Part shown: piece by piece, positions 1,527 through 58,821 of the stretch
How the letters are laid out: the number at the start of each line of letters is the position of its first letter
How positions within the stretch are numbered: position 1 is the first letter of the stretch
DNA from: a virus
Taxonomy: Duplodnaviria > Caudoviricetes
Virus record (IMG/VR): IMGVR_UViG_3300035338_000024
Coordinates: 1-62,279 of that record
Strand: one strand, 5' to 3'
Length of the DNA stretch: 62,279 nt
Notes under the pieces: generated by a model
What the model was told of the DNA's origin: nothing
Database searches by the model: none
Seen by the model: only the letters and a program-made list of their open reading frames with translations
Made by a program: the position numbers and the translations under genes

Positions 1527-1540
1527 GGTTGCCCCCTTGC

Positions 1541-3663: not shown

Positions 3664-3675
3664 GGCCCCCCTCCT

Positions 3676-25814: not shown

Positions 25815-25835
25815 GAAGCGGAGAGCGGAAGCCCC

Positions 25836-29882: not shown

Positions 29883-30055
29883 TGAGGCGGCAGTAAGAAG
29901 CACACCAGCACCCACCACACGGCCGGGTCCTCATACCCGACGGTTCGCCATAGCCGAAGAAGCCGCGCAAGGGCCAACGCTGGAACGGATGGAGCAGATG
30001 CGACCTGACGAGCCTGACACTCGACTCCAACTGATCCGACGAAAGGAACACATCC

Positions 30056-31198: not shown

Positions 31199-31292
31199 CG
31201 GGGTGACGGGCGCGCCGCTGAAACCCTGATCGACCGAAATCCCCGGGCCCGTGAGCCGGGCCCGGGAAACCGCTTAGAGAAAGGACACTCCC

Positions 31293-31790: not shown

Positions 31791-31866
31791 GCCCTGGTGG
31801 CCGGTAGACCAACCCTTTGCCCGGGGGGCCTCCGAATGGGGGCCCCTTCAGATCAAGGAGCAGACC

Positions 31867-33213: not shown

Positions 33214-33217
33214 TCCC

Positions 33218-34075: not shown

Positions 34076-34090
34076 CCGGGAGGCCGCGCC

Positions 34091-34810
34091 ATGAAGCATT
34101 GCCGTTCCAGATACGCCTGGCTGCTGGTTGCATTGCTGGTGCTGTGCGCCGGCAATGCGGCCGCATCCAGCCAGACCATGAGCACCAAGACGGTCGCCAA
34201 CTTTATCACGGAGCTGCGCGACCTCCTGAACGACAAGGACTCCGAAAACTATTTCTTCGGCGACGACGAGCTCCTGCGCTGGACCAACGCCGGGGCTGCC
34301 GAACTCGCCACCGTGGCCCACTGCTTCGAGGACCTTGTGACGATCAACCTGGCCGCCGGCCAGATTTTCTATGCCCTGCCGGCAAACTACCTGGCGGTGG
34401 TGGCCGTGGTGCTCATGGATGCGACCGGCGGGAACCCCCGGGGGCTCTTGAAGGGCAGTCCGGCGTCCATCGGCGCGAGCCAGGAGGACCTGCTGAAGGG
34501 CAAGCGCGTGGTGGGGTGGTTCACCTTCAAGCACCAGCTGGGCGTCTACCCCCTGCCGGCCGCCGGCACCACTGAGAAGCTCACCGTCATGCTGGCCCTG
34601 CCCGCCACCGCGGCGGCCGACACCAACGCCACCTTGCCCGTTCCCGCGATCTACGAGCAGGCCCTCCGCTACTACGTCCTGTCCCAGGCCCTCTACAAAG
34701 ATAAGCAGAGCGCCCGGGCGGCCTCCTTTCTGACCCTGTTCTACCAGGTGGCAACCAACATGCGGGCCGAGCTGGTGGAGCCGCTTTCCGGCAACCGGGA
34801 GGTCAAGTGA
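34091..34810 (+). CDS. Phage adaptor (DUF6682-like) with N-terminal signal peptide
   Basis: TVANFITELRDLLND...DDELLRWTNAG...YEQALRYYVLSQALYKD; GGGAGG RBS. Confidence 0.75.
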   Translation: MKHCRSRYAWLLVALLVLCAGNAAASSQTMSTKTVANFITELRDLLNDKDSENYFFGDDELLRWTNAGAAELATVAHCFEDLVTINLAAGQIFYALPANYLAVVAVVLMDATGGNPRGLLKGSPASIGASQEDLLKGKRVVGWFTFKHQLGVYPLPAAGTTEKLTVMLALPATAAADTNATLPVPAIYEQALRYYVLSQALYKDKQSARAASFLTLFYQVATNMRAELVEPLSGNREVK

Positions 34811-37539
34811 TGGCCACCGTTCGGTGCCGCTGGCTGGTTGCGCTGATCGCCCTGCTGGTCCTGGCGGGGTCTGCCGGGCTCTATGCCGTGCCACAGCCAA
34901 TCCGGGTGATGGAAGTCCCCGACCAGGAGCCTCAGCGGAAGGATTTTACGTTTTCGGGGAAGTGGATGCCCTCCATCGACCCGAGCCGGCTCGGCGCGGA
35001 GAACTTCCGCACCCTGCGCAACCTGCGGCCCATCCGCGAAACCATCGAGGGCACCAACGGCTACACCCTGGCGACCACCGCGCCGCTCGCCACCTACACC
35101 GACATCCGCGACGGGATCCAGCTCCGCAAGGACGGCCAGAGCCACATCCTGGTGTGGGCCGTGGACCCCGCCACGGGCCAGGGCCGCGTCTTCCTCAACA
35201 AGACCGAGGTGCCCGACGACGGACCCTTCGAAGCTACCCCCATCCATACCGACAGCGTCCCGGGGCTGACCGGATCCCTCGCGGAGCTTCCCCGGGGAGC
35301 CATAGGCTACGCCAACGGCGACGAGTCGATCATCTACTCGGGCGAGATCATGCCCGTGGGCGGGTTCTACCTGGTCAACGACGCAACCCTCGCGGGCGCA
35401 GTGTGGTTCGGTGACCAGGCTCAATCCACCCTCTCCACGCCCAGCGAGACCATCCCCATCGGAACCAAGCGGTTCGCCCTGGTCTTCGTGCCCCGGGCGC
35501 TGGACGCGCTGCACTTCACGGTAACGTCGGCCAATTCCACGGCCTCCACGGTGGCCGTCAAATACTGGACCGGCACCGCCTGGGCCGCCGTGACGGGGCT
35601 ATCCGACAGGACCAGCCTGGACGGCAAGGCCCTGGCCCAGAGCGGCACCATCTCCTTCGACTCCACCGTCGGCCTGGTGGCCCCGTGCCACTTCGAAGAT
35701 TTTTACAGCGCCGCCTACCTGCTGGAGTGGACCGCCGGGACCACCGCAATCCTGGGCCAGGTCACCAGCCGGGCGCCGCCCCAGCCTCTGCAGAACGCCT
35801 GGGACGGCGCCGACCGCCAGTTGACCCAGGTGCAGGTGTCCCGATCAGGCAAGTGGGAGGACTACACCCTCAACGCCAACGAACCGTCCGGCGTCGATTA
35901 CCCCATCGGCGCGGTGCTGGACGGCCTGGTGGCCACGACCGAGTTCATGGTGGTGATGAGCCAGGAACGCCTGAGCGCGCTTCGGCTCACGATGGTCGGC
36001 AACCTGGTCAACACCACGGGCAACACCACGGTCACCGTTCAGTATTGGTCGAGGTCCGGGGCCTGGGTGAACGTCTCCAACCCGGTGGACGGCACCAAGT
36101 CGGGCAACATCGCCCTCAACCGCTCAGGTCTGGTGAGCTGGACGCCCCCGGCGGTGACCGAGGAGGCCCAGCACGTCGAGTACGGGGCCATCTTCGGCAC
36201 GCCAGGCTTCGCGTACAAGGTCTTCTGGACGGGCGGCAACCTGTCCGGGACGGCCGGCGGCGCCAAGGAGCTGGTCATCGACCTGGTGCGGGGCCGACCC
36301 GCCCAGGAGCGGGTGCCGGCCTTCAAGTTCCTCCGGTCCTACAAGGGCCGGGTCCTGGGTTGCGGGGTCCCGAGCGAAAACGCCGGCAATCGGGTGGACT
36401 TCACGGCCACCAACGCCCCGGATGTTTGGAACGGCAGCGAGTCCTCCCGCGGCCCCACCACGGGCCCCCTCTACTTCGGCAGCGAGAACGAGCCGCTGAC
36501 CAACGGCGTCACCCTCTACAATCGATATGGCTCCAACGTCTTCGAGATCTTTTTCGCAACCTCCCGTTCCCGCTGCTTCCAGCTGAAGGGCTCGGCGCCC
36601 CGGGGATCCACCAACGACCTGTCCGAGGTCTTCTCCATAGACACGGTTTCGGATTCCGTGGGCTGCCCCGCGCCGAAAACCATGGTGGTGCTGGACGGCT
36701 TCATGGTGGGCCAGGATGTCGAGCGCAAGGTGGTGATGTTCCTCGACTCGTCCGGGCCCTACCGCTACGACGGGGCCACACTGACCCGGATACCGGGCAT
36801 CGAGAACTACTTCGACCCGGCCAACAGCGAGGCCATCAACGCCGACCTGATCCACCTGGCGGCCGGCTGGTACGACCCGGTTTACCGGGAGTGGAACATC
36901 GTCTTCCCTTCCGGCAGCGCGGCCGTCAGGAACAACACCTGGCTGGCCTTCAACGTCGAGCTCCAGAAGTGGTACGAGCGGTCCACCGGGGCCGCTCCCA
37001 TGCCGCAGGTCGGGTGGCTGGTCAAGGAGCCGTCCGGGGCCCACCGGGTTTATGCCGGTCTCGAAACCGGGCACATCGCCCAGCTGGAGGACGGCACCAG
37101 CTGGAACGGCACCCCCATGGACCAGGTGGTGGTGACCGGCGATATCTTCCCCACCGGCAGCATCGCCGACCAGACCATCATCCGCGAAATCAAGATCGTC
37201 TCCCGCCGTATCCCCGAAGCCCACACCCTGGCCATGACCTACTTCAAGGACACGGCCGCCGGGTCCGGCGTCGATCACCAGTGGATCAGCGACGCCGCTC
37301 ACCAGTGGTGGGACACGCCCGACCACCAGTGGGTGACCGAGCAACTCGCCACCGTGGACTTAAGCGCCGGCAGCAGCCTGACCCGGCTGGTGCGCACCAC
37401 CTCTCCCCTGAACCTCGTGGCCTGGAGTCACGGGTTCGGCTTCCAGGTTTCCACGACCACCACCGAGCGGGGCTTCCAGCCCATCGGCTGGTCCATCAAG
37501 TTCAACCGCGTGCGCGACGACCAAGGAACAACGAAATGA
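34810..37539 (+). CDS. Putative tail nozzle/stabilisation protein with N-terminal signal peptide
   Basis: 909 aa, beta-propeller-like motifs (VGCPAPKTM, VMFLDSSGPYRYDG, AGWYDP); podovirus position. Confidence 0.7.
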   Translation: MATVRCRWLVALIALLVLAGSAGLYAVPQPIRVMEVPDQEPQRKDFTFSGKWMPSIDPSRLGAENFRTLRNLRPIRETIEGTNGYTLATTAPLATYTDIRDGIQLRKDGQSHILVWAVDPATGQGRVFLNKTEVPDDGPFEATPIHTDSVPGLTGSLAELPRGAIGYANGDESIIYSGEIMPVGGFYLVNDATLAGAVWFGDQAQSTLSTPSETIPIGTKRFALVFVPRALDALHFTVTSANSTASTVAVKYWTGTAWAAVTGLSDRTSLDGKALAQSGTISFDSTVGLVAPCHFEDFYSAAYLLEWTAGTTAILGQVTSRAPPQPLQNAWDGADRQLTQVQVSRSGKWEDYTLNANEPSGVDYPIGAVLDGLVATTEFMVVMSQERLSALRLTMVGNLVNTTGNTTVTVQYWSRSGAWVNVSNPVDGTKSGNIALNRSGLVSWTPPAVTEEAQHVEYGAIFGTPGFAYKVFWTGGNLSGTAGGAKELVIDLVRGRPAQERVPAFKFLRSYKGRVLGCGVPSENAGNRVDFTATNAPDVWNGSESSRGPTTGPLYFGSENEPLTNGVTLYNRYGSNVFEIFFATSRSRCFQLKGSAPRGSTNDLSEVFSIDTVSDSVGCPAPKTMVVLDGFMVGQDVERKVVMFLDSSGPYRYDGATLTRIPGIENYFDPANSEAINADLIHLAAGWYDPVYREWNIVFPSGSAAVRNNTWLAFNVELQKWYERSTGAAPMPQVGWLVKEPSGAHRVYAGLETGHIAQLEDGTSWNGTPMDQVVVTGDIFPTGSIADQTIIREIKIVSRRIPEAHTLAMTYFKDTAAGSGVDHQWISDAAHQWWDTPDHQWVTEQLATVDLSAGSSLTRLVRTTSPLNLVAWSHGFGFQVSTTTTERGFQPIGWSIKFNRVRDDQGTTK

Positions 37540-45030: not shown

Positions 45031-48000
45031 ATGGACGAGATCGTCAAGGGCTGGCTGCAGGACCCTGAGTTCCGGCGCCTGGGCGCGGAGCAACAGCGGT
45101 CCATCGTTGGCCACCACTTCGACACCGACTATGCCGACGATGAGTTCAGGGCCCTGGCAGCCGACGAGCAGGCCCGGGTGCGGGAGTATTTCCTCGCGCA
45201 ATCCGGCCTGAAGCCCCCCGCGCCGCCCCCGCCCAGGATGGCACAGCGGCTTCCCACCCAGCGCCCCGGCGCGGGGGTGGGTGCCAGCGCCCGGCCGGTT
45301 CAGACCCGGGAGCTGGCCACCGATCCCGAGTTGCCCGAGAACCGGCGTATGCGGGAACTCTCCCAGGGGCCGGCGGCGCGACTGGCCGGCGACCTGGAAC
45401 AGGGGATGCTCCAGGTGAACCTGGGGCGCCTGCGCTCCCGCCAGGTCTACGACGGCGACGACACTCCCGAGGTCCGCAACGGGATCGCCAACATCAAGGC
45501 CCAGATAAGGCCGCCGGCTGAGAATGTCGGCACCGTGGAAAGCTTCCTGGGTTCGGCCTTCCGCATGTTGCCCACCATGGGTGCCACCATGTGGACCGGC
45601 GCCAAAGCGGGCGCGAAGGAGCTTCTGCAGCATCCCGAGGCCCCGGCCCCGGCCTTCGCCAGGGGATTCCAGCTGAGCGCGGCCATGGAAATGGGCCGCA
45701 TCGAGGCGGGCCTCGCCTACGATGAGCTGCTGGAGCTCCGGGACGACCGAGGCAACGCCATAGACCCGAAGGTCGCCCGTCTGGTGGCAGGCGGCGTGGG
45801 CGCGGTCAACGGCCTGATCGAGGTGGCGCAGATCGGGTGGCTGGCCAAGGCCTTCCCCGGGGCGCAGTCGGTCGCCACCCGGGCCATCGCCCGGGGCCTG
45901 GCCAAGCTGGGCCAGAGCGGAGCCCTGAAGGCTGCGGCCGCACGCGCTTCGAAAGTGGCCGGCAGCATCGCGGGCCGCAACGCCATCAAGTTTGGGGAGT
46001 TCCTGGCCGGCGAGGTGGCCCAGGAGGTCACCCAGGAGTCGGCCAACATCGTCGGCGCCTTCGTCGCGGCTGAGATGGACGCCGAGATGAACGCGGCCGG
46101 CATCCCCGAGCTTCAGCGGGCGGCCATCATCGAGCGCCTGAAGGAGACCGCCGTCGAGAGCGCCAAGGCCTTCGTCGTCATCGGAGCGCCCGGTGCTGCC
46201 GTCTCCGTCGGCCACGACGTGCAGCACTCCCTGAAGAACCCCGGCGAGGAGGCGTCCACCCCCGAGGACATTATCCTGGGGCGCCCCGCCGGCAGCGCAC
46301 CGCCTTCAGCGCCCCCTGTCGGCCCCGACGGCGGCACTCGCCGTGCCCCCATGCGCATGGCCTCCGAGGCCCCGGCGGCCGACTCCTTCATGCCGGAAGC
46401 CGCGGCACCCCCAGCCGTGTCACCGATCCCTGCGGCACCCCCTGGCCCCGGAGCCCCGCCAGCAGCCCCCGTGTCCGCGGGGGCCTTGTCTCGCCTCGCC
46501 GTTCCAGCGCCTCCGAGGACCCCTGCGGACGTGGCCCTGGACGAGGACGATGCCCTGGCCGGCGCCGATCCCCGGGAGGTGGACCGCCTGGCCGCCCAGG
46601 CCGAGCAGGAGAAGCAGGCCGAGGTTGCCATCCAGGCCAACGACGCCGCCACCAGCCTGCAGAACGACCGGCCAGAGCCCACCGAAGGGCAGAAGAAGGC
46701 CGGCAACTACAAAAAGGGGCACATCAACGTTCTGGGGTTCGACATCACCGTCGAGAACCCGGCCGGCTCCACCCGCAGCGGGAAGGCGCCGGACGGGACC
46801 GAATGGGAAGTCGAAATGCAGGACCACTACGGCTACTTCCGCCGGTCTCTGGGAAAGGACGGCGATCAGGTGGACGTCTTCCTGGGCCCGGCGGTCAACA
46901 CTCCGAAGGCCTTCGTCATCGACCAGATGGATCCCAACACCGGGGAGTTTGACGAGCACAAGGTCATCCTGGGGGCCGCCAACGCCCAACAGGCCCGGGA
47001 GATCTACCAGCGCAACTATGAGGAGGGGTGGAACGGCTTCGGCGGCATGACCGAAATGGAGCCAGCGCAGCTGAAGGCCTGGCTGGGGGACGGCACCCGC
47101 AAGAGGACCCCGCTCGATCCCTCGGTTCCGGTAAAGGCCGTCAAGTCGGCGGCGACGGTCGGCGGGATGGCCTTCACGGACAAGGAGGCCGCGGCGCTTG
47201 AGGCCGCCAAGAAGGCCGACGCCCTGGCCAAGGCCAACAGCAACGGGGAGACGGCCCGGAAGGTGGCCGCCGGCTTGGGGATCGAGTTCAACGGGGTGGA
47301 CCCGGCCGCGCAGTACCTGTTCACCGACCCTGTTACGGGCGACACCTTCGCCGTTTCCAAGCTGGGGGACGCTCACAAGCGCTTGGCCGAGCTGCGGGCC
47401 AAGAAGGGGGTTCCCGCGCCGGCGCCGGAAGCGCTGGCTGTTCCCCAGGCCCCGGACGGACTGGAATCGATCCTGGACGAGATCCGGAAGAAGGGCGCCG
47501 AGCAACGAGCCAAGGAGGAAGCCGAGGCCCGCACCGGTGCCGAGCCTGAAGCGCAATCGGGCGCCCCGACGCCCAGCACTGATTCGACACCTGAGAAGAT
47601 CCCCAAGCCGAAGCGTCAGCGAGCGAAGCAGGCCCCCATCACCGTCCGTGGCTGGATCAAGAAGATGGGCGGAATCAACCCCGTGAACATGGCCGCCGAG
47701 TTCAAGGAGGCGGCCGTGGCAGTCAAGATGCTGCTTCGGAAAAACGGCACCCCATACGATAAGATTGAAACAGCCTTAAAATCAGAAGGTTATCTCCTCG
47801 AAGGTGAAAATCTGCTTGACCTTCTGATTGGCGATCACGAACGGGCCAAGGAGGTCCTGAAGCGCCGGAACACCGACATTACTGCGCGTAGTGGCGACGA
47901 CCTAACCCACAAGGAGAAGCAACTCCTATCGCAAATGGAATACGAGCCCGAGGATCCTCCCCCGGGCGAGTACGTCCAGGTCAATGCCGAAGACCTCCCC

Positions 48001-51000
48001 GAGGGCCGCCCCCTGACCATCATCGCCGGCCACGGGCCGGATGGTTGGGACATCTACAAGATCATCGACAAGGACCCCTTCGGCGTCACCCTTCAGGACG
48101 GGACCACTGTTGAGCTCGCCCCCTTCGACCGGGTGGACGTGCTGAAATCCGACCTTGAGGGGGAAACCAAACCCAAGATGGAAAATGGGCCCGGGGAGGC
48201 CCCGGCAGAAACCAACGCGGAAGCCCCCGCGCCGGAAGCGCCCGAAGCGCCAGAGCCGGCGGCCGCCCCCGAGCCCGGCAAGCCCACTCTCGACCTGAAG
48301 CAGGAAACTCACGGCCAGCAGCGGCCGAAGCCCCTACACGATTCGAGGCCCATCAAGTCCGGCCACAGAGGTGGGAAGCTGGGCCCCGACGATTACTTTT
48401 CGACGCCCAGCAGCCGCGACGAGGCCCAGCCCGGCCTGGGGTTCCAGAACCCCCGGCAGCCGGACCTGTTTGCCGGCGGGGAGCGGAAACCCGAGGCCAC
48501 TCCGGAGAAGATCCCTGGAACCAAAGCGGTGGCCCAACGCATGCTCGCCGGGGAGGAACGTTTCATCGAAAGCGTGATGGAACAGTTCGGAAAGACCCGG
48601 GAGGAAGCCGAGCGGGTGCTGGCGCGCTTCAAGGAGACCAAGCTCGTCCACATCGACTCAGTGACGGGGCAGTACCAGTTGAAAACCGGCGCTTCCTGGG
48701 AGCAAGACGTGATCGACCGGGCGGCCGCCGAGCCCAAGAAGCCGCGGCACCTGCCAGCCCCCGCGCCGGTGGAGATCAAGGGCGGACTGGGGGATCCCGC
48801 CGCCTTCTTCGGCCTGAGTCCGAAACAGCGGATTCGGGCGCTGCTGAAGCTCTTCGGCGACGTGGTGCGCAGCCGGGGCGAGCGGCTCAACAAAGTGGGC
48901 CTGCAGCAGGTGGTGGCGCGCGCCCTGGGAGTCGAGCGGGGCCCCCTGCTGGCCGATTCCCGGTACAACCAGAAATTCGTGGAGGAGGTCTTCGAGGGGG
49001 CCATTGCCGCTGAGGCCCGGCGCGTGATCGACGCCGCCCGGGCCGAGGGGTTCACCGTGGCCGAAACCTTCGCGGAGCTCCAGCGGCTCTACGAGTGGCA
49101 GCCGAACCTCGCCACCCGGACCTCCACCAGCACCATCAACCAGGCCTATTCCACGCCCGTCCACCTCGGCTACCTGCTCCAGGAGCTGGCGGGCGTCACC
49201 CGAGACGCGACGGTGTACGAGCCCGCCGCGGGCACCGGGATGCTGCTCACGGCGGCCTCCCAGCACAAGGCCCACGCGAACGAGATCAACCTCCTGCGCT
49301 CCGAGATCCTGCGGGCCATGGGTTTCACTGCCTCCCAGGAGGACGGCGCCACCTTAAACGCCGGCCGCCACGACCCCAACGAGCGGGACGCCGACGCCGT
49401 GGTGGCCAACCCGCCTTTCGGCGCCATTCCCACCGTAAAGGTCGATGGATACAATGTCTCCCAGATCGACCACCGGATTATGGCCGACGCCCTGCGAGCC
49501 ATGAAGGACGATGGACGCGCGGCCTTCATCATTGGCGGCCACAACCTGGGCAGCAACGGGCAGATCAGGCACGCCCCGTTCTTCAACTGGCTCCACCACT
49601 TCTACAACGTCACCCACAACGTGGAGGTGGACGGCCAGCTTTACAGCCGCCAGGGGACCAAGTACGATTTCCGCATCATCGTGATTGACGGCCGCAAGGC
49701 CGAACCCGGGGGCGCAGCACCGGACAGCGGTTTCCTGTCGGCTTCGACCCCCGATGAACTGTTGAACCTCTTTGGAGGGCTGGCCGATGCAACCGTGGCT
49801 TCCCGAGGAGTTGAAGCCCTATCCCGCGGCGAGGCGCCTGCTGGCGGTGTGGGTGGGGGAGAAACCGCCGACCGGGGCAACCTACCCGATGGCCCTCCGA
49901 ACCAGGGTGCGCCGGATGATCGAGGACCTGGGGGTGCCCAGGGCCCGCGCGGTGGTGGAGCAGTTCCTGGACAGGCCGGTGGAAGGGGAGACGCCCGAGG
50001 AGCTGCTGGCAGAGCTTCAGACCAGCGCCCGGTGGATGCACCCGGGCCAGGCCCTGACACACTACCTCCGCGGGGAGACGACGCTGGAGAACGTCCTGGA
50101 CAACCTGCAGGCGAGGGAGCCGGACCTCGAAGCGCCGACACCCGAGCAGATGAAAAAGGAAATGGAGGCCGTGAGCCTGGAGGAGTTCCTGCTGGAGAGC
50201 GAGGGCCGGATGCTTTAGGCGGCATCCTCGATCAGATCCGCCGCGAGGGCGCCCGGCAGCGCGAGAAGGAGGCCGCGGAGAAGGCCGCCGCCGACGCCGC
50301 AAAGGCCCAGGCCGATTTCGACCGGCTGGCCAACAACCTCAACGATCTTCTGGACGACCCCAATTTTTCCCGCCGGCCCGCAGAGGCCATTGCCGACGAC
50401 GACCCCCGCTGGTTGAAGGTCCGCGAGATCCTGCGGCAAATGTGGGAGGCCACCGCCAAGCTCGCCGCCACCGTGGCCGAGCGGGCGAGCCTCTTCATCA
50501 CCCAGACCTACGCCAAACTGAAGGCCGCCGCCGAGCCCTACCTTCTGAAGTTCGCCCAGGCCGACATCGCCGCCGCCCTCGAGGCCGAGAAGCAGCAGCA
50601 GGAGCGCAAGGACGAGGTCCCCGGGGGGGCCGACGCCTACCAGGCCCCCTACGTTCCGCGCAGCAAGGGCCCGGTGGTGGACGAAACACTGGTGCCACGC
50701 AAGATGGCCCAGGACACCCAGGCAGCCCTGGAAGCCCTGGAGGCACGGGTGGGGGACATCGATCGGTACGTCGCCAGCCGCCTCGACTACAAGAGCACCA
50801 AGGCGCTTTGGGACGCTCTGTCGGCCGACCAGGTGGACGCCGTGGCACTCGCCATCGACAACATCGAGCGCGGCTACGGCATGATCATCGGGGACCAGAC
50901 CGGGGTAGGCAAGGGCCGGGTGGCCGCGAGCCTCTACCGCTACGCCCGCCTGCAGGGGCTCAAGCCCATCTTCTTCACGGAAAAGCCGAACCTCTTTTCG

Positions 51001-54000
51001 GACTTCTACCGGGACATCCGCGACATCGGGCAGAAGGTCTTCAAGCCCTTCCTCATGGCCTCCAACCGCGACCTGGCCAACATCGTGGACGAGGACGGCG
51101 AGGTGGTCATCCCCACCCCGGGCCTCCGGGAGCGCGCCGGGCTGCTCAAGGCCGGCGACGACGCGGCCGTCGCCCGGGCCATGAGCCCCCATGACGGGAT
51201 CCTCTCCACTTACTCCCAGGTGCGGCAGCCCAACGACGCCCAGACCGTGCTGATCCTGCTCGCCCGGGACAACATCATGATCCTGGACGAGTCCCACAAC
51301 GCTTCGGGGGAATCGGCCACGGGGGAGTTCGTCCGCGGCGCCCTGGCCGAAGTGCGCGGGGTGGCCTACCTCTCGGCCACCTTCGCCAAGCGCCCCGACA
51401 CCATGCCGGTCTACTTCCGCACCGCCATCGGCACGAGCAACATGCAGATGGAGCAGCTGATCGACGCCATCAGCGCCGGCGGGACCCCGCTACAGGAGTG
51501 GGTGAGCGCGGCCTTGGCCAAGATGGGGCAGTACATCCGGCGGGAGAAGAGCTTCAAGGGCATCGAGATTCGGAGCCACTTCGACACCGCGAACCGGGAG
51601 CGGGACGCCCGCCGGGCCGACGAGGCGACCGCCATCCTGCGCGAGATCCTTGAAGTGGACCGCCTGGTGGCCGACTCCCTTGCAGACGCGATCCGGACCA
51701 TCAAGAACGCCAAGCCCAAGGACCTCCGGAAGGCCAAAAAGGTCGTTATCGGCGGGGTGGAGTTTGACCCCATCGGGATTCGGCCGGGCTCCAAGCGGCC
51801 GGTGCGGGCATCGGTCAACACGGCCAACTTCGCCAGCACCGTTCATAACAAGATCCGGCAGCTGCTGCTCGCCATGAAGGCCGACGCCGCGGTGGAGGCG
51901 GCCATCGAGGAGTTGAAGGCCGGCCGCAAGCCCATCATCGCCGTGGCCAACACCATGGAGTCCTTCGTCACCGATCTGGTGAACCAGGGGATGATGAGGG
52001 TGGGGGACCGCTTCGACCTGAACTTCGGCAACATCCTGGAGCGCGCCCTGCGGCGCACCCTGCGGGTAAGCATCACCACGCCCCAGGGGGAGGAGATTCA
52101 GGTTGACCTGGACCCCGCGGAGTTGGGGGAGAAGCTCGAAGAGGCCTTCGACACGGCCCTGGAAATGATTCGGAACTCAAGACTCGACGTTCCGGGCAGC
52201 CCCATCGACCACATCCGGCGAAAGCTGAAGGAGGCCGGCTACTCGTCGGAGGAAATCACTGGCCGGGGCTACGTGGCCGACATCGAAAACCCGGTGCCCA
52301 CCCTGCGGCTGCGAACCGGGAAGGAGCGCAGCGACCGGAAGGGCATCATCCACCGGTTCAATTCCGGCGCGCTCGACGTGGTGATCATCAATTCGGCGGG
52401 CTCCACCGGGATCAGCATGCACGCTTCCCCGAAGTTCACCGACCAGCGGCCCCGAGTCTACATCGGGGTGCAGGCTGAGCTCAACGTGGACACCGAAGTG
52501 CAGAAGATGGGCCGCATTAACCGGAAGGGGCAGACCGCGCTTCCCTCATACCGGCTCCTGTTCCTGGACCTTCCCACCGAGATCCGGCCGGCGGCGGTGC
52601 TCTCCCGCAAGCTGAAAAGCCTTTCGGCCAACACCAGCGCGAACGCCGACAGCCCTGTCTCCCAAAAGGAGCTGCCGGATATGCTCAACCGCTACGGCGA
52701 CCTGGCGGCCGCCGAGTGGGTGCGGCAACACGGGATCCAGCTGCCCAGCGGCGAGTGGCAGGTTCCCGGGATGAAGGGGATCCGGCTGAACCCCGACGGC
52801 GGCATCGTGCAGATTTCCGGGCGGGTGGGGGTGCAGTCCATCGCCATGCAGGAACAGTTCTGGGAGTGGGTGGAGGGCGCCTACAAGGACACCATCGAGT
52901 GGATGAAGGAGATCGGCACCTTCGACCTCGAGGTTGGGGAGTACGACTTCAAGGCGAAGACCCTCAGCCGCACCACCCTGAACGCCGGCCGCGCGCGGGG
53001 CCCGAACAACGTCTTCACCCTTCCGACCACCCTGGAACAGGTGGAGGTGGTGAGCCCCACCAAGCCCTATAAAATCGCCCGCATCCAGGAAATGGTGGAC
53101 GAGGAGCTGGCCGGCAAGAGCCCCCAGGAATACAGCCGCGGCCTGATTGACAGGCTTCGCAAGGAGCTGGCCGAGTACCTGGGGACCGAGATCGCCAGGA
53201 TAAATTCCGAGTTCAGCCAGGAGCCGGGGGAGGACGGGGTTTCGCCGGCCGCCTCTCAGATTGCCCGGCTGCGCGGCCGCACCGACGAGCAGTTCCAGAA
53301 GATCGAGCGGATGCTCTCCCGCCGCTTCCTGGGGAAGCCCTACATCGTGAGCGGGGTTGAGGGCGCGCCCGACATGCACGCGGTGCTGGTCAAGGTGCGC
53401 TTGGCCAAGGCCGCGGGCTCCCCGGTGGCCCCGGGCCGAGTCCGGCTGGTCTTCGCCGTCAACAGCCCCATGCGCACCCTTTCCCTGCCCATTTCCAAGA
53501 TCGACGCGGCCAATCTCTTCGTGCTGGATACCAGCGAAGCCGTGCTTCGCAGCTGGGACAGCGCCGCGGCTCTCCATGCCACCGAGCGCCGCCACATCCT
53601 GACTGGCAACCTCCTGGACGCTTATTCCCACGTTCGCAGCCAGGCCCGCCTGGTGCGCTTCACCCGGGAGGACGGGAGCTGGGACATGGGCGTCCTCGCG
53701 CCCCGCAACTTCAAGGCCGACAAGGTGGACACCCGGGTGGCCCTTGACCCCGAAATGGCGGTCAGGGCCGCCCTCCTGGGCATGCGTATTTCCTCCGGGT
53801 CGGTGGAGGTGATGCGGGACGCCGACGATTTGCTGGTGACCGTCCCCAAGAGCAAGAGCCTGGGGGCACGGTTCTACCAGGACCAGGACCTGCTGGCCCT
53901 GGCCGAGGGGGGCGAGTTCCAGAGCAGCGCCAACTACATGAGCGCGGCTTTCCCCGCGAAAAACACCCGCCGGGTGGTGGAGCGGATCATCGCCCTGGGT

Positions 54001-57000
54001 GAGGTCTTCAAGGTGAGCCAGGCCGATTTCAAGGTCCTTTCCAGCCATGCCGCCGACACCACCCTCCGCGAGCCCGAGGCAACCTACCTGGCCGAGCCGA
54101 AGTCCATCGGCATGCGCCCCATGGTGCAGGCGTCTCTCGACTTCTCGGGAAAGGCCAAGGATGGGGAGCCTAAGGCACCCACATTCAAGCGCCCGACGCC
54201 CTTGGTGCGGATGGCCACCAGCGGAGACATTGCCGCCGCCGGTAACGTGATTTTTTCCGTAGACGACGCGGCGTCTCTTTTGGCCCACATCCGCAAAGAG
54301 GCCCAGGAACACATGATGGTGGTGGTGGTGGATTCACAGGGCCTCGTTCTGGAGGTCCAGCGGTACACCGTCGGGACTCACGGAAGCTCGCAGTTCAACC
54401 TGGCCGAGCTTACCGGGCGGGTGCTGAATATCCCCGGGGCGGCCAAGGCATACATCGCCCACAACCACCCGGGGGGTACGACGGGCCCGTCAAGCCACGA
54501 TATTGCCATGGCGAATCACGTCCGCGCCATTCTTGCCTTACGGGGCATAGACTTCGAAACGTTCGTGATCGCCGGGACCAATTACGAGTCTTTCTCAGAC
54601 GGCATCGTGACTTCGAACTCGCGATCGATTAGGCCCACCGTGCGCAGGGCGAGGGTCCCGATTGTGCGCCGGGTGCTTAAATCCACCGCCGACAGGGGTC
54701 CAGGAATTACTGGCCCGGATGAAATGGGCGCATGGATCCGAGCGGCCGGGGACCCCGAGGGGTTCATCCTGTTGGACAACTTGAACCGGCCCGTCGGCGT
54801 GGTGCCGAAGGCCAAGGGCATGCCTATTCGTGAATTTGCGGCCGAGGTGGTCGCCGGCCTGGAGGCGACCAACGCGAGCGGCATGGTCTACTCCAGCCGG
54901 TCGGAAATCAAGGCGGGGACCCCCGAGCTCGACGCGGTTCGAAGCATCCGGTCGATGATGCAGTACACCGCCAGAATGCTCGATGTTTACGAGCGCGGCG
55001 TGTCGGCCGCGTCCACGACGGGCCTGGACAGGTTTGACGATAAGATCGCCCATGTGGACATCGCCGCGCAGCGGGCCAACGACGAGCGCCCTCTCTTCCT
55101 CCTGGGTCGCCGCCCCAAGGCGAAACGCTTCGCCCGGCTGAACAAGGCCGAGGCTGAGAGCGCCGCCCGCAAGGTCATGGACGGCTGGAGGGCCGCCCCC
55201 GGGCTGGTGGTAGTGGCCCAGCAGAGCGAGCTTCCCGAGGGGATACTGGCCAAGTCGAAGGGCGACATCGTGGACGCGGCGTACTGGCGGGGGAAGGTCT
55301 ACGTCGTGGCCGAGAACGTCGAAAACCCGGCCCATCTGGCAACGGCCGTCCTCCACGAGGCTTTTGGCCACCACGGCCTGCGGATCGCCCTGCCGGCCCC
55401 TGAGATCATATCCCTGCTGGATGCCATCTACCGGGGGAATAGGGAAGCGGTTGGCCGGATCGGAAAGGACTACGGCTTCGACACCGCCACCCCGAAGGGC
55501 CAGCGCCTGGCCGCCGACGAGTGGTTCGCCCGCCAGGCCCAGGAGCTGGAGGGCTACAAGCTGTGGCTCAAGCGCGCCGCGGCTGCCGTGGCTCGTATGA
55601 TGCGCCGCCTGGGCTTCTCCATCAACGAGGACGACGCCCGCATCCGCCAGGCTCTGCTGGACGCTCGCAAGGCCGTGATCGAGGGCTCGGGCGCAGTGGC
55701 CAGCGGGTGGGGGGCGGCGCCGGCCTTTTCCGCCCGGGGGCGGGTCGCTGCCCAGGCCGAGGCCGGCCCCGATTGGAAGGGGGCCCTGCCGCCCGAAGTC
55801 GTCCAGCGCGAGGCCGCCGCCCGCGGAATCCCGAAGGCGGCTCTGCTGGACAATCTGAGGGACTGGGGCCGGGTGCTGGTCCACCAGGCCCACCACTTCC
55901 CGCATCTTCAGACCGTTAAAAACCGGGTTGAGCGGGCCCGGCTCAACGACATCCTTCGCAGGCACCAGGAAGTCCCATCGATCGCCAAGCAGCAGGCCCT
56001 GGAGATGATTTCCTCCTGGACCCGGGGCCTCTCCCAAAGCGAGTACGAGCTTTTCCGGGTGAGCGTGATCACCGCCGACCTGCTGCGCGACCTGGAAAGC
56101 GGGCTTTACTCCGCGGAGGACGGCGCCGAGAGGCCCCTGCCGTTCGGCTACGCGAACCACCAGGAGCTGCGTGACACCTTCCAGCGGCTGAAGGACCTGG
56201 CCGGCGACCACCCCAAGGTGGTCCGGGCCCTGGAGGCCCGTCAGGAATCCATCCGCGACATGACCCGCCGCCTGGTGGAGGCCAAGCAGATTAAGCGGGA
56301 GAACCTGGGAAATGGCGACTACTACCACCACCAGGTGATTCAATACTGGGCCATGGACCGGGGCATCCAGGTGGGCAGCAAGGACGTCCGCACCAAGTGG
56401 CGCCCCTGGAAGGCCGCCCGCACCGGCAGCCAGATGGACTACAACACCGAGTATGTCGAAGCGGAATTCATGGCCCTGGCCAGCCAGATCGCCCAGCTGG
56501 AGACCGTGGAAACCCTGCGCCATGTGAAGGCCGAAAGCGACATCTTCAAGGCGCTGGTGGGGGAGGCGAAGCAGCGCAACCTGGCCAACCTGTGGGCCAA
56601 GGCCCGCCGCGAGGGCTGGGTGGAGCACTACCCGCCCGGGCACGAGCGGGAGGGGGAGGAAATCGACATCCTGCTCCCCTGGAAGCAAAAGATTGCCATG
56701 GCCAGGGCCAAGCTGGCCAAAATGGCTGAGCGTGGGGAGCTGGACTTCGACAGCGAGTGGGACGATCTGGTTGACGAGCTCGCCCAGGACCCCGACATGG
56801 ACCACCCCCGGTGGTTCCAGTTCCTGAGCTACCTCATCGACAAGCAGAAGCCCGGGGCCAACTGGGCGGCCACCATTTTCAAGGCAATCCGCGAGCGCAA
56901 CCAGTTCATCGAGAGCACCCTGGGGGACGAGTTCCTGACCTGGCAGAAGGTCCTGGCCGAGCGCGAGGGCTACGTCGAGTGGAAGCCGGATCCCGGGAAG

Positions 57001-58821
57001 GGGTGGTTCTGGACGTCCACCATCACCGACAAGGTGCTCCAGCAGATCGCCGCCGGCTTCGTGGACCCCAACGAGGCCGAGACCCGCCGGCTGCTTGCCC
57101 GGGGCCGCGACACCATCTGGGTGATCCCCGAGGGCCTGGCCGCCACCCTGGACGAGTTCTATCCTCCCAGCGACAAGAGCGAGGTGGGCATCGGCCGGTT
57201 TGGCGATTGGGCCATGAGTGCCTGGAAGCAGTACATCCTGCTCAACCCCTACAGCCTCATCAAGTACAACCTCAACAACACCAGCGGCGACGTGGACGTC
57301 TGCCTGGCCTACAACCCTGCCATCCTGAAATACGCCGGCCGGGCCTTCAAGGATCTGCGGCAGTGGCAGGGGAGGGACCGGGCGAAGCTTCCCCCGGCCG
57401 TGGCCGAGGAGCTGGAGCTTGCCCTTCGCCTGGGGGTGATCGGGTCCGGCTGGGCGGTGCAGGAGGTCCAGGACGTCTTCAAGATCCTGAAGACCGACCG
57501 GCTGATCGGCGACATCCTGCTAGACGAGCGCCCCAACTGGTTCAACCCCAAGACATACGGCGACGGCTATTGGCGCATGGCCCGGGGGGTGACGACCCTG
57601 CGGGAGAACGTGCTGCGCCTGGCCGCCTTCCGCTACTTCCGCGACAACAACGACAAGCGCCTATACGGGGCGAGCCGGCGGGAGGAGGTGGACGCCATCG
57701 AGGACCGGGACGAAAAGGCCGCGAAGCTCGCCCGGGAGTTGCTGGGGGACTACGGGAACATCTCCAAGACGGGTGGCTGGCTGCGCAAGCGCCTGATCCC
57801 GTTCTACGCCTGGCTGGAAATCAACGCCCCGCGTTACGCCTACATGATGTGCAACACCCGGTACGAGGACCGCGAGCCGGGGGCCGTGGCCCTGCGCACG
57901 GCCGGAGTGGCCGGCAAGAAGGCCGCCTTTTCGGCCGCGAAGCTCGCCCTGCGCGCTGGCATGCTCTACGGGGCGGTCATGCTCTGGAACATGCTCTTCT
58001 TCGGGGACGAGGAGGAGGAGCTGGCGGCCGGCGGCCGGGACCAGCTGCACCTGATCCTGGGGCGCAACGAGGACGGCACCATCCGGTCGATCCGCTTCCA
58101 GGGAGCCCTCTCCGACGCTCTTTCCTTTTTTGGTCTGGAGGACTTCCCCCAGGACGTCAAGGACGTGATGAAGGGGAAGTCCACCATCCTGGAAAAGCTC
58201 ATCGAGGCCCCCAAGGCCCTCACCAACCGGATGTTTCAGGGGATCCGGCCGGACCTCAAGACCGCGGCCGAGGCGGTGGCCGGGCAGCGCTACTTCCCCG
58301 ATGTCTGGCGGCCGACCCCCATCCGGGACACGGTCCGGCACATACTGCAGACCTTTAAGCTGGAGAGGATCTACGACGAGGTGACCGGCCAGCCGCGCCG
58401 CAGCGACGGGGTGGCCGCCCACCTGTGGGGGGACCTCAAGTCCCTGTTGATCTTCGAAAGCGACCCCGGGGAAATGGCCTACTTTACCACCCGCAAGCTC
58501 GTGTTCGACTACCTGCGGGAGCAGGGCCTGGAGCGGCCCGACGCGAAGCCCACCAAGAAGGGCAATGCCCTCTATTTCTACAAGAAGGCCCTGCGCTACG
58601 GCGACATGCGGGCCGCCGAGAAGTACCTCCAGAAATACTATCAGCTGGGGGGGCGGCCAAAGCAGATCAAGGAGAGCATCCAGAAGGCCCACCCCCTGGC
58701 AGGGGTCCCCGAGCGGCTGCGGCACCGCTTCCGGCAGTCGCTCTCCCCGGGTGACGCCGCCACGGTGGCCCGGGCCATGGAGTGGTATCGGATGGCCTAC
58801 GGCAGCAATCCACCGAACTGA
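45031..58821 (+). CDS. 4596-aa DarB-like polyvalent protein (InPase, adenine MTase, strawberry-notch SF2 helicase, RadC/JAB, zincin peptidase, LPD-like C-terminus)
   Basis: AGNYKKGH...DGDQVDVF; EPAAGTG/NPPF; GDQTGVGKG/DESH/GRINRKGQ; HNHPGG...SSHD; HEAFGH. Confidence 0.9.
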   Translation: MDEIVKGWLQDPEFRRLGAEQQRSIVGHHFDTDYADDEFRALAADEQARVREYFLAQSGLKPPAPPPPRMAQRLPTQRPGAGVGASARPVQTRELATDPELPENRRMRELSQGPAARLAGDLEQGMLQVNLGRLRSRQVYDGDDTPEVRNGIANIKAQIRPPAENVGTVESFLGSAFRMLPTMGATMWTGAKAGAKELLQHPEAPAPAFARGFQLSAAMEMGRIEAGLAYDELLELRDDRGNAIDPKVARLVAGGVGAVNGLIEVAQIGWLAKAFPGAQSVATRAIARGLAKLGQSGALKAAAARASKVAGSIAGRNAIKFGEFLAGEVAQEVTQESANIVGAFVAAEMDAEMNAAGIPELQRAAIIERLKETAVESAKAFVVIGAPGAAVSVGHDVQHSLKNPGEEASTPEDIILGRPAGSAPPSAPPVGPDGGTRRAPMRMASEAPAADSFMPEAAAPPAVSPIPAAPPGPGAPPAAPVSAGALSRLAVPAPPRTPADVALDEDDALAGADPREVDRLAAQAEQEKQAEVAIQANDAATSLQNDRPEPTEGQKKAGNYKKGHINVLGFDITVENPAGSTRSGKAPDGTEWEVEMQDHYGYFRRSLGKDGDQVDVFLGPAVNTPKAFVIDQMDPNTGEFDEHKVILGAANAQQAREIYQRNYEEGWNGFGGMTEMEPAQLKAWLGDGTRKRTPLDPSVPVKAVKSAATVGGMAFTDKEAAALEAAKKADALAKANSNGETARKVAAGLGIEFNGVDPAAQYLFTDPVTGDTFAVSKLGDAHKRLAELRAKKGVPAPAPEALAVPQAPDGLESILDEIRKKGAEQRAKEEAEARTGAEPEAQSGAPTPSTDSTPEKIPKPKRQRAKQAPITVRGWIKKMGGINPVNMAAEFKEAAVAVKMLLRKNGTPYDKIETALKSEGYLLEGENLLDLLIGDHERAKEVLKRRNTDITARSGDDLTHKEKQLLSQMEYEPEDPPPGEYVQVNAEDLPEGRPLTIIAGHGPDGWDIYKIIDKDPFGVTLQDGTTVELAPFDRVDVLKSDLEGETKPKMENGPGEAPAETNAEAPAPEAPEAPEPAAAPEPGKPTLDLKQETHGQQRPKPLHDSRPIKSGHRGGKLGPDDYFSTPSSRDEAQPGLGFQNPRQPDLFAGGERKPEATPEKIPGTKAVAQRMLAGEERFIESVMEQFGKTREEAERVLARFKETKLVHIDSVTGQYQLKTGASWEQDVIDRAAAEPKKPRHLPAPAPVEIKGGLGDPAAFFGLSPKQRIRALLKLFGDVVRSRGERLNKVGLQQVVARALGVERGPLLADSRYNQKFVEEVFEGAIAAEARRVIDAARAEGFTVAETFAELQRLYEWQPNLATRTSTSTINQAYSTPVHLGYLLQELAGVTRDATVYEPAAGTGMLLTAASQHKAHANEINLLRSEILRAMGFTASQEDGATLNAGRHDPNERDADAVVANPPFGAIPTVKVDGYNVSQIDHRIMADALRAMKDDGRAAFIIGGHNLGSNGQIRHAPFFNWLHHFYNVTHNVEVDGQLYSRQGTKYDFRIIVIDGRKAEPGGAAPDSGFLSASTPDELLNLFGGLADATVASRGVEALSRGEAPAGGVGGGETADRGNLPDGPPNQGAPDDRGPGGAQGPRGGGAVPGQAGGRGDARGAAGRASDQRPVDAPGPGPDTLPPRGDDAGERPGQPAGEGAGPRSADTRADEKGNGGREPGGVPAGERGPDALGGILDQIRREGARQREKEAAEKAAADAAKAQADFDRLANNLNDLLDDPNFSRRPAEAIADDDPRWLKVREILRQMWEATAKLAATVAERASLFITQTYAKLKAAAEPYLLKFAQADIAAALEAEKQQQERKDEVPGGADAYQAPYVPRSKGPVVDETLVPRKMAQDTQAALEALEARVGDIDRYVASRLDYKSTKALWDALSADQVDAVALAIDNIERGYGMIIGDQTGVGKGRVAASLYRYARLQGLKPIFFTEKPNLFSDFYRDIRDIGQKVFKPFLMASNRDLANIVDEDGEVVIPTPGLRERAGLLKAGDDAAVARAMSPHDGILSTYSQVRQPNDAQTVLILLARDNIMILDESHNASGESATGEFVRGALAEVRGVAYLSATFAKRPDTMPVYFRTAIGTSNMQMEQLIDAISAGGTPLQEWVSAALAKMGQYIRREKSFKGIEIRSHFDTANRERDARRADEATAILREILEVDRLVADSLADAIRTIKNAKPKDLRKAKKVVIGGVEFDPIGIRPGSKRPVRASVNTANFASTVHNKIRQLLLAMKADAAVEAAIEELKAGRKPIIAVANTMESFVTDLVNQGMMRVGDRFDLNFGNILERALRRTLRVSITTPQGEEIQVDLDPAELGEKLEEAFDTALEMIRNSRLDVPGSPIDHIRRKLKEAGYSSEEITGRGYVADIENPVPTLRLRTGKERSDRKGIIHRFNSGALDVVIINSAGSTGISMHASPKFTDQRPRVYIGVQAELNVDTEVQKMGRINRKGQTALPSYRLLFLDLPTEIRPAAVLSRKLKSLSANTSANADSPVSQKELPDMLNRYGDLAAAEWVRQHGIQLPSGEWQVPGMKGIRLNPDGGIVQISGRVGVQSIAMQEQFWEWVEGAYKDTIEWMKEIGTFDLEVGEYDFKAKTLSRTTLNAGRARGPNNVFTLPTTLEQVEVVSPTKPYKIARIQEMVDEELAGKSPQEYSRGLIDRLRKELAEYLGTEIARINSEFSQEPGEDGVSPAASQIARLRGRTDEQFQKIERMLSRRFLGKPYIVSGVEGAPDMHAVLVKVRLAKAAGSPVAPGRVRLVFAVNSPMRTLSLPISKIDAANLFVLDTSEAVLRSWDSAAALHATERRHILTGNLLDAYSHVRSQARLVRFTREDGSWDMGVLAPRNFKADKVDTRVALDPEMAVRAALLGMRISSGSVEVMRDADDLLVTVPKSKSLGARFYQDQDLLALAEGGEFQSSANYMSAAFPAKNTRRVVERIIALGEVFKVSQADFKVLSSHAADTTLREPEATYLAEPKSIGMRPMVQASLDFSGKAKDGEPKAPTFKRPTPLVRMATSGDIAAAGNVIFSVDDAASLLAHIRKEAQEHMMVVVVDSQGLVLEVQRYTVGTHGSSQFNLAELTGRVLNIPGAAKAYIAHNHPGGTTGPSSHDIAMANHVRAILALRGIDFETFVIAGTNYESFSDGIVTSNSRSIRPTVRRARVPIVRRVLKSTADRGPGITGPDEMGAWIRAAGDPEGFILLDNLNRPVGVVPKAKGMPIREFAAEVVAGLEATNASGMVYSSRSEIKAGTPELDAVRSIRSMMQYTARMLDVYERGVSAASTTGLDRFDDKIAHVDIAAQRANDERPLFLLGRRPKAKRFARLNKAEAESAARKVMDGWRAAPGLVVVAQQSELPEGILAKSKGDIVDAAYWRGKVYVVAENVENPAHLATAVLHEAFGHHGLRIALPAPEIISLLDAIYRGNREAVGRIGKDYGFDTATPKGQRLAADEWFARQAQELEGYKLWLKRAAAAVARMMRRLGFSINEDDARIRQALLDARKAVIEGSGAVASGWGAAPAFSARGRVAAQAEAGPDWKGALPPEVVQREAAARGIPKAALLDNLRDWGRVLVHQAHHFPHLQTVKNRVERARLNDILRRHQEVPSIAKQQALEMISSWTRGLSQSEYELFRVSVITADLLRDLESGLYSAEDGAERPLPFGYANHQELRDTFQRLKDLAGDHPKVVRALEARQESIRDMTRRLVEAKQIKRENLGNGDYYHHQVIQYWAMDRGIQVGSKDVRTKWRPWKAARTGSQMDYNTEYVEAEFMALASQIAQLETVETLRHVKAESDIFKALVGEAKQRNLANLWAKARREGWVEHYPPGHEREGEEIDILLPWKQKIAMARAKLAKMAERGELDFDSEWDDLVDELAQDPDMDHPRWFQFLSYLIDKQKPGANWAATIFKAIRERNQFIESTLGDEFLTWQKVLAEREGYVEWKPDPGKGWFWTSTITDKVLQQIAAGFVDPNEAETRRLLARGRDTIWVIPEGLAATLDEFYPPSDKSEVGIGRFGDWAMSAWKQYILLNPYSLIKYNLNNTSGDVDVCLAYNPAILKYAGRAFKDLRQWQGRDRAKLPPAVAEELELALRLGVIGSGWAVQEVQDVFKILKTDRLIGDILLDERPNWFNPKTYGDGYWRMARGVTTLRENVLRLAAFRYFRDNNDKRLYGASRREEVDAIEDRDEKAAKLARELLGDYGNISKTGGWLRKRLIPFYAWLEINAPRYAYMMCNTRYEDREPGAVALRTAGVAGKKAAFSAAKLALRAGMLYGAVMLWNMLFFGDEEEELAAGGRDQLHLILGRNEDGTIRSIRFQGALSDALSFFGLEDFPQDVKDVMKGKSTILEKLIEAPKALTNRMFQGIRPDLKTAAEAVAGQRYFPDVWRPTPIRDTVRHILQTFKLERIYDEVTGQPRRSDGVAAHLWGDLKSLLIFESDPGEMAYFTTRKLVFDYLREQGLERPDAKPTKKGNALYFYKKALRYGDMRAAEKYLQKYYQLGGRPKQIKESIQKAHPLAGVPERLRHRFRQSLSPGDAATVARAMEWYRMAYGSNPPN
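49787..50218 (+). CDS. Nested 143-aa gene in +1 frame of the giant gene
   Basis: GGAGG 8 nt before ATG; high GC3 in this frame; globular helical composition. Confidence 0.7.
   Translation: MQPWLPEELKPYPAARRLLAVWVGEKPPTGATYPMALRTRVRRMIEDLGVPRARAVVEQFLDRPVEGETPEELLAELQTSARWMHPGQALTHYLRGETTLENVLDNLQAREPDLEAPTPEQMKKEMEAVSLEEFLLESEGRML

Follow-up and report, generated by a model that had tools for sequence, protein, structure and literature searches.

Does the linker between the methylase and helicase domains of a giant phage protein serve one reading frame or two? The question is raised by the window, a stretch of 62,279 nucleotides that spans positions 1 to 62,279 of IMG/VR virus record IMGVR_UViG_3300035338_000024 and has a GC content of 0.63. 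An open reading frame (ORF) of 4596 codons at 45031..58821 on the plus strand encodes the giant protein. An initial annotation, made from the DNA letters alone, had proposed that a 143-residue gene is hidden within it in the +1 frame and that this could be checked by GC at codon position 3 (GC3) in each frame, by the ratio of non-synonymous to synonymous substitution (dN/dS) in both frames and by structure prediction. From composition and comparison of sequences, we conclude that 49787-50218 is very probably dual-coding, with a real out-of-frame gene in the linker and both frames maintained. The features concerned are as follows.

45031..58821, plus strand: host gene, a polyvalent virion-type protein of 4596 aa with InPase, N6 adenine methylase, strawberry-notch-like superfamily 2 (SF2) helicase and RadC/JAB domains (ORF list, translation, Pfam).

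49084..49536, plus strand: N6 adenine methylase domain (residues 1352-1502, NPPF motif; Pfam PF02384, 24.0 bits against a cutoff of 20.4).

49640..49668, plus strand: promoter-like site TTTACA-17-TACGAT, about 120 nt upstream of the nested start, a consensus match only and a lead.

49763..49765, plus strand: TGA closing the +1 frame 7 codons 5' of the nested ATG (read from the sequence).

49774..49778, plus strand: Shine-Dalgarno (SD) motif GGAGG, 8 nt 5' of the nested ATG.

49786..50220, plus strand: host-frame reading of the overlap, a linker of about 145 residues, rich in G, P, R, A, D and E, that spaces methylase and helicase (translation, composition).

49787..50218, plus strand: nested gene in the +1 frame, 143 aa, acidic (isoelectric point (pI) 4.9), helical, of an unnamed family (translation, codon signature, homologues, model, positional orthologues).

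50216-50218, plus strand: nested stop TAG (read from the sequence).

50815..52734, plus strand: strawberry-notch-like SF2 helicase module (residues 1929-2568; Pfam AAA_34 58.8 bits, Helicase_C_4 74 bits, ResIII).

The signals of the nested ORF are where the initial annotation had put them (GGAGG at 49774-49778, 8 bases, ATG at 49787, TAG at 50216-50218, 143 residues in the +1 frame) and, as it had also stated, translation of the 45031..58821 ORF shows the host frame to be open over the entire nested interval. The low complexity that it had noticed in the host linker is equally plain: 93% of the peptide over the overlap is small, charged or polar (G/P/S/T/R/E/D/A/N/Q/K) and 7% is hydrophobic. 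The TGA at 49763..49765 means that no long N-terminal extension of the nested protein is possible. A promoter consensus scan of 49000-50600 gave two sites where 0.1 were expected, and an Rfam search of 49000-51000 found no RNA family, hence no group I or II intron.

The per-frame GC count shows a sharp shift. Over 49831-50130 the sliding count gives GC of 0.93/0.74/0.46 at host positions 1/2/3, against about 0.65/0.45/0.90 elsewhere in the gene; read in the nested frame the same bases give 0.74/0.46/0.93, which is a normal coding signature. The codon periodicity shifts to the nested frame exactly from the nested ATG to the TAG. A filter for coding-like composition, applied to the window ORFs of at least 70 aa, is passed by just one alternative-frame ORF inside the giant gene, the nested ORF. 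The open +1 frame alone is not significant in the window, because a simulation given the host peptide and the local codon usage leaves it open in 66% of cases. The composition shift, the homologues and the comparative data are what, on our reading of the sequences, lift the nested ORF beyond chance.

The same arrangement is present in related loci. Pattern scans that used the helicase start and the methylase alignment gave 7, 32 and 5 loci (44 in total) from cyanobacteria, Bacteroidota, Pseudomonadota, Desulfobacterota-type metagenome-assembled genomes (MAGs) and IMG/VR viral contigs, with GC ranging from 0.41 to 0.63. All 44 have a +1 ORF (about 90-200 codons) shortly 3' of the methylase domain. 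For the scans that gave 32 and 5 loci, an automatic list gave a +1 ORF of about 100-250 codons with the host frame open in 33 of 37 loci, and in the remaining four (L022, L029, L048 and L038) a +1 ORF was seen on reading all three frames; L038 is cut by the contig end, the ORF of L022 is shorter (about 90 codons) and the host frame of L029 ends soon 3' of the helicase N-terminal motif. The 7-locus set, which is viral with a GC of 0.41, has a 134-codon ORF at the same position. A further metagenome scan with alignment A3 gave 585 pattern matches, none of which was confirmed.

The translations of these positional ORFs look protein-like and have in common a W-x-P strand at the N terminus and an L-x-E-[FW]-L helix at the C terminus. 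Of the 34 loci listed, a good many of them closely related, 31 have an SD-like motif 5' of the ATG chosen as start, and in most related loci a +1-frame stop lies 0-7 codons 5' of the ATG (directly 5' of it in L049, L050 and L051). One family member is in L015, a Thermodesulfobacteriota MAG locus on the same contig as L017 with an ORF of 4611 codons: it occupies the corresponding position in the +1 frame, AAGGAG lies 5' of its ATG and the GC3 switch is the same. The proposal that the second gene is real and that both frames are maintained is borne out by homologues, in which the +1 frame is also open and has an ATG with an SD-like motif before it.

Which of the two frames is under selection for its amino acid sequence can be read from the position of the differences between relatives. 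Pairs of loci in a set of 11 from cyanobacteria differ on average by 0.060/0.039/0.247 at host positions 1/2/3 upstream of the overlap and by 0.048/0.021/0.288 downstream of it. In the overlap the mean difference is 0.176/0.090/0.060, the 3>1>2 pattern of the nested frame. Estimates of dN/dS agree, giving 0.24-0.36 for the nested frame against 0.63-2.0 for the host frame over the same bases; these are naive NG86 values without overlap correction, and the kin within a cluster are not independent.

NG86 dN/dS, nested frame: cyanobacterial 0.24; Desulfobacterota-type 0.36; GC-0.41 viral 0.31.

NG86 dN/dS, host frame, same bases: cyanobacterial 2.02; Desulfobacterota-type 1.27; GC-0.41 viral 0.63.

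Variants of the window segment in contigs of two other studies have no indels; nested position 3 accounts for 6 of the 12 variable sites in the nested gene, and host position 3 for 8 of the 10 just upstream (small counts, with phases computed by hand). Taken together, these comparisons indicate that in three clusters of relatives it is the nested frame whose amino acid sequence is under selection.

The host frame behaves differently. We simulated openness in 19 loci by fixing the protein of one frame and drawing synonymous codons from the host gene's own usage. With the nested protein fixed, the host frame is open with a probability of 0.11 in the window, 0.0025 in L017 and at most 0.0005 in 11 of the 19 loci, with 2-11 stops expected. 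Additionally, T-ending nested codons are depleted in 18 of 19 loci. The simulations and the substitution data point to a host-frame linker that is unconstrained in sequence among the relatives, yet open far more often than chance predicts. The converse simulation, with the host peptide fixed, leaves the nested frame open with a probability of 0.001-0.74 across loci, so openness of the nested frame is weak evidence in GC-rich loci.

The nested protein evolves faster than its host, with a mean identity of 0.20 in comparison with 0.42 for the methylase and 0.40 for the helicase. Its pairwise identities follow those of the methylase (Spearman 0.68; none of 2000 Mantel permutations reaches the observed value) and of the helicase (Spearman 0.54), correlations by which it co-diverges with the host gene.

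The nested product belongs to a genuine protein family. A full scan of 1.84 billion representatives gave 13 matches at E<=1e-3 (best E 8e-11). Twelve of these are proteins of 139-180 aa that align nearly end to end, and the other, a protein of 1331 aa, aligns over five short stretches. The alignment places the SD motif and ATG at the first residues of the family and the stop at its last; its invariant residues (W4, R16, L19, L94, L100 and E125) are mostly hydrophobic or structural. From 13 sequences, AlphaFold2 gave a confident model of the nested protein alone, with a predicted local distance difference test (pLDDT) score of 95.1, a predicted template modelling (pTM) score of 0.88, two short strands and eight helices. 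The model has no fold match in PDB or BFVD and the product is predicted to have a new fold. A model of the cyanobacterial set (pLDDT 85.0, pTM 0.82) has the same order of strands and helices as that of the window and no PDB match. By sequence, the best PDB profile match of the nested protein has an E of 0.08, CHAD scores 17.9 bits in Pfam, under its cutoff of 25.6, and in the ESM Atlas only unnamed viral clusters were matched, which are leads only.

In all 20 loci compared the nested protein is acidic (pI 4.3-6.1), with a net charge of -2 to -15 that is often mild, and 29-42% hydrophobic, as opposed to 7-25% for the linker peptides, whose pI ranges from 4.3 to 10.8. Searching the phage and plasmid collections with the nested protein by tblastn gave no match at E 1e-3, the protein was found in none of 40 relatives' genomes, and of 400 other genomes of the phylum, 4 match the family profile. 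Free-standing chromosomal paralogues are present in two of the phylum's genomes, and neither is overlapped by a long ORF.

L014, 9486-10136, plus strand: free-standing paralogue, 216 aa.

L016, 9736-10398, minus strand: free-standing paralogue, 220 aa.

Both have an extra conserved N-terminal segment with CxxCGHHE. Their neighbours are of housekeeping type (ETF, ARMT1-like phosphatase, peptidase M23, methyltransferase) and nothing points to a mobile-element context. L010, a 2769-base contig, also has a close family member (profile E 2e-42) at 944-1594 on its minus strand; this member is not spanned by a long host ORF and overlaps a different ORF, of 298 codons, on the same strand.

To see how the arrangement is distributed among annotated records, the methylase part was searched by tblastn, giving one phage record and 67 plasmid records, of which nine were inspected. 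Six carry the nested ORF, namely Bacteroides phage BS-TP4 and five cyanobacterial plasmids. It is absent from Pseudomonas pND6-2, Leptolyngbya boryana plasmid1 and Persicobacter pPP10, the last of which has methylase and helicase as separate genes. In the methylase tree these three loci are scattered and on long branches, requiring three changes, of which at least two are forced by well-supported branches; loss fits this pattern better than repeated gain. The Pseudomonas putida plasmid pND6-2 (L054) has an ordinary in-frame linker. Methylase-strawberry-notch proteins are common on proteobacterial plasmids (26 Pseudomonas and 19 Xanthomonas records), and L054 is the one inspected.

The expectation that gene callers would miss the nested gene holds for five of the six inspected carriers, in which it is unannotated. 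It does not hold for Gloeobacter morelensis pGMOR1 (L057), nor for several cyanobacterial records of NCBI or JGI: there are 55 database clusters of the cyanobacterial form and some are named 'hypothetical protein'. RefSeq annotates the pGMOR1 nested ORF (3312-3761) as a hypothetical protein and a helicase coding sequence from 3758, 4 nt before the nested stop, and has no coding sequence over the methylase part. We considered whether pGMOR1 might be a true three-gene form and ruled this out, as its methylase frame has no stop between 2297 and the locus end (5732). Judging from that open frame, the large gene has probably been mis-split in the annotation. The window lacks the kind of helicase start codon annotated there, one that overlaps the nested stop. 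We found no literature report of a gene nested in a methylase-helicase linker, in a search that did not cover subscription journals.

Four other explanations were weighed. The one that survives best, and it is very unlikely, is a selfish insertion of the ShiLan type, in which a mobile element sits in the methylase-helicase gene and the out-of-frame protein serves its own spread. Absence of the gene from three scattered relatives would suit such an element, as would the architecture, which is described likewise for ShiLan (PMC11855218): a stop-free host frame and an out-of-frame ORF with its own start and with its stop at the very end. However, those absences are on long branches and consistent with loss, and the gene is present in 44 of 44 scanned loci rather than sporadically. 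It co-diverges with the host gene, its product has no fold match, searches of Pfam, PHROGs, NCBIfam and PADLOC gave neither a nuclease nor any other mobility domain, and the invariant residues of the family are mostly hydrophobic or structural.

Still less likely is a non-functional read-through, whereby the methylase protein would end in a junk tail, the helicase would be initiated separately and only the nested frame would matter over the overlap. Although this is how the NCBI pipeline annotates pGMOR1, and separate methylase and helicase genes do exist in pPP10, it does not explain a host frame that is open where chance predicts 2-11 stops, or the depletion of T-ending nested codons. Additionally, no frame-0 ATG, GTG or TTG can be read near the nested stop in the window, and the methylase frame of the Gloeobacter plasmid runs on to the end of the locus.

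Recoding or error is highly improbable. A +1 ribosomal frameshift near 49766-49787 would produce a methylase fusion ending at 50218, and SD-like motifs inside coding regions, such as the one here, can stimulate frameshifting. In L020, L037, L039, L040 and L041 the +1 frame is open for 16-90 codons before the ATG. In most loci, however, it is closed within 0-7 codons of the ATG, and the free-standing homologues start at the same residue. No longer protein carrying the nested domain in frame was found in the scan of 1.84 billion representatives (a second search is weak evidence), the only long match being the 1331-aa protein with its five short stretches. Compensating indels or assembly errors would be the other source of such a layout; assembly error is excluded because the layout is the same in more than 50 independent assemblies and the variants of the two other studies have no indels.

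Least credible of all is that the +1 ORF is a non-coding by-product of a hydrophilic low-complexity linker with few T at codon position 2: long alternative-frame ORFs are many in this GC-rich window and the host-peptide simulation leaves the +1 frame open in 66% of cases here, 74% in L021 and 44% in L051, but lower-GC loci give only 0.001-0.08 in the same simulation, codon periodicity and substitution pattern track the nested frame and not the host frame, free-standing homologous genes exist, the models reach pLDDT 95 and 85, and the SD motif, ATG and stop fall at the ends of the family.

Several results weigh against a maintained and functional nested gene, and we set them beside it here. The homology that joins the positional ORFs is weak: hhalign relates the window family to the cyanobacterial set with a probability of 70% (E 4e-5) over 61 N-terminal columns, and the window-family profile matches only 4 of 37 loci (L017, L018, L049 and L050), with a weak match to L021. 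To call them one family therefore relies partly on position and on similar predicted topology. In the 34-locus list no SD-like motif was found for L030, L052 or L040 (the start of L040 is set one codon off in that list), and Bacteroidota-type loci have a weak SD-like motif at most. Initiation inside a translated ORF is assumed from the SD motif and ATG. The dN/dS values are uncorrected for overlap, as noted above. The absence of the nested ORF from three of the nine annotated relatives means that the enzyme can exist without it. As to function, the nested protein has no family in Pfam, PHROGs, NCBIfam or PADLOC. As to expression, a search of RNA sequencing runs gave none that contains the stretch.

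With these points allowed for, dual coding remains the reading we prefer, and it would work as follows. In one reading, the +1 frame would be a separate cistron inside the host mRNA, initiated at its own GGAGG-N8-ATG, and its product would be an acidic, mostly helical globular protein of 143 aa with an undescribed family and fold. In the other, ribosomes coming from 45031 would translate the overlap in frame 0 into a spacer of about 145 residues, hydrophilic and probably disordered, that ties the N6 adenine methylase to the strawberry-notch-like helicase of the DarB-like polyvalent phage protein. Selection on the host frame would mainly keep stops out and perhaps also preserve hydrophilicity and a certain length. 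To make the nested protein, ribosomes would initiate internally on the giant mRNA; a transcript from the promoter-like site at 49640-49668 is another possibility.

The initial annotation had described the nested gene as overprinted on the giant one. Dual coding stands, each of its checks by GC3 shift, homologues, dN/dS and fold having come out in favour, but the direction is probably the reverse. The nested frame holds the codon signature and the selection on sequence, and because that signature is normal and free-standing relatives exist, the nested gene is probably the older reading and the host-frame linker the overprinted one. The fused enzyme may have arisen by read-through of a pre-existing small gene between methylase and helicase parts. 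The arrangement is old, and phages, plasmids and chromosomal islands of several phyla have it in their methylase-helicase genes.

What the nested protein does can be suggested only tentatively, and this includes the chaperone, inhibitor or regulator role put forward in the initial annotation. Its fixed position, its co-divergence with the enzyme and its acidity make it possible that it is a stoichiometric partner or regulator that works with or on the methylase-helicase. It might, for example, occupy a nucleic-acid-binding surface until the enzyme is packaged or delivered, and nesting would keep the small protein genetically inseparable from the enzyme. A complex prediction, with the methylase region and the N-terminal half of the helicase as chains and the nested protein as partner, gave a score of 0.00, which speaks neither for nor against binding. 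The widest form of the proposal, to which we give somewhat less than even chances, is an ancient cross-phylum gene-in-gene in which DarB-like antirestriction machines would include, as an obligatory third component, an acidic protein of new fold (regulator, inhibitor or assembly factor), with the linker overprinted and about 100-170 codons kept open in two frames at GC of 0.41-0.63.

Few long, fully embedded same-strand overlapping genes have solid evolutionary support in bacteria and phages, and pipelines usually discard them. For support obtained without experiment, that presented here is unusually strong, with more than 50 loci from several phyla and phages, a confident new predicted fold and a switch of the selected frame. 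The gene would give the methylase-helicase dyad of polyvalent antirestriction proteins a component that has gone unrecognised, show that an interdomain linker can be 'borrowed' from the frame of another gene, and offer a natural system for how ribosomes initiate inside a translated giant ORF. Cultured carriers (Bacteroides phage BS-TP4 and the plasmids of Picosynechococcus and Acaryochloris) make a direct test feasible.

The host gene and its surroundings fit a phage origin. From PHROG matches that give large terminase, portal and major head proteins upstream, the window is phage or prophage. The head and packaging module is at 22631-37539, with the large terminase at 23462-25063, the portal at 25836-28121 and the major head protein at 30056-31198; the giant gene follows it in the same orientation, as expected for a virion-delivered protein. 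Pfam places InPase at residues 553-685 of the host protein, N6_Mtase at 1352-1502, AAA_34 at 1929-2182, Helicase_C_4 at 2441-2568 and RadC at 3078-3190, with ResIII also in the helicase module, and the PHROG match is to DarB-like antirestriction. The conserved methylase core reaches about 49770 and is 47% identical to that of L015; NPPFG is invariant in the methylase alignment (23 rows), and the helicase module is about 35-45% identical to relatives. Methylase and helicase, the latter C-terminal, are in one ORF together with the InPase and RadC domains. By these domain matches the host gene is the DNA methylase-helicase dyad of polyvalent proteins (DarB-like), and the nested ORF lies precisely between its two halves.

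Other parts of the giant gene also vary. The giants of L015 (5199-19034, 4611 aa) and the window (45031-58821, 4596 aa) are similar by BLASTP in their methylase-helicase core only (33% identity over 1986 columns, residues about 1310-3200), and their unrelated N- and C-terminal thirds suggest modular exchange around a fixed core. A second low-complexity stretch, Pro/Ala-rich, is at 46231-46680. There GC rises to 0.78-0.84 and 0.60-0.74 at host positions 1 and 2, and GC3 is still 0.78-0.81; this is an in-frame linker with no frame switch, and the other-frame ORF at 46343..47050 is open but fails the composition filter. At 47581-48030 the GC3 of the giant gene falls to 0.65-0.69 with the phase unchanged, and this may be a module of different origin.

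Finally, we compared the locus with known systems. The polyvalent dyad described by Iyer et al. (2017, PMC5512222) has an EcoKI/TaqI-like NPPF adenine methylase followed by a helicase of the SWI2/SNF2 clade, and the host gene here resembles it in having a methylase and a strawberry-notch-like helicase in a giant phage protein with further effector domains. A search of the available text of PMC5512222 found 'overlapping' and 'frameshift' 0 times each and no mention of an overlapping gene; as far as that text goes, the nested protein is a component of the dyad that is not described there. DNA-mimic antirestriction proteins of the Ocr/ArdA kind have a strongly acidic surface; the nested protein is acidic in 20 of 20 loci, often mildly, and its model matches the fold of no PDB chain, though it may be a mimic of new fold.

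ShiLan, as presented in PMC11855218, is an HNH endonuclease ORF lying out of frame in mycobacteriophage DNA methylase genes, sporadic, thought to home and with no detectable ribosome-binding site. The two cases are alike in that a methylase-bearing phage gene contains an out-of-frame ORF that has its own start and stop, and the host frame runs stop-free through the insert, in a predicted tolerated loop or linker (PMC11855218). They differ in that the nested product here is without a nuclease or any known domain, and its ORF is in every scanned relative, co-diverges with the host gene, has an SD motif in most loci and lies between two domains and not inside one.

Two embedded genes of known function were also compared. 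Rz1, in the Rz gene of the lambda spanins, is a +1-frame gene wholly embedded in another phage gene, as is the ORF here; both of its frames are structured and the two products are functional and act together, whereas the host frame here is spacer-like and unconstrained and a partnership of the two products is only inferred. In Bacillus subtilis, comS is a small gene out of frame in the very large multidomain gene srfAB, and is expressed from the transcript of its host. It has 46 codons, is confined to Bacillus and regulates an unrelated pathway (competence); in contrast, the ORF described here has about 100-170 codons, is found across phyla and is tied to one enzyme family. As in Rz1 and comS, both frames are open throughout, the embedded ORF has its own putative start signal and, by the naive estimate, the embedded frame is under purifying selection.

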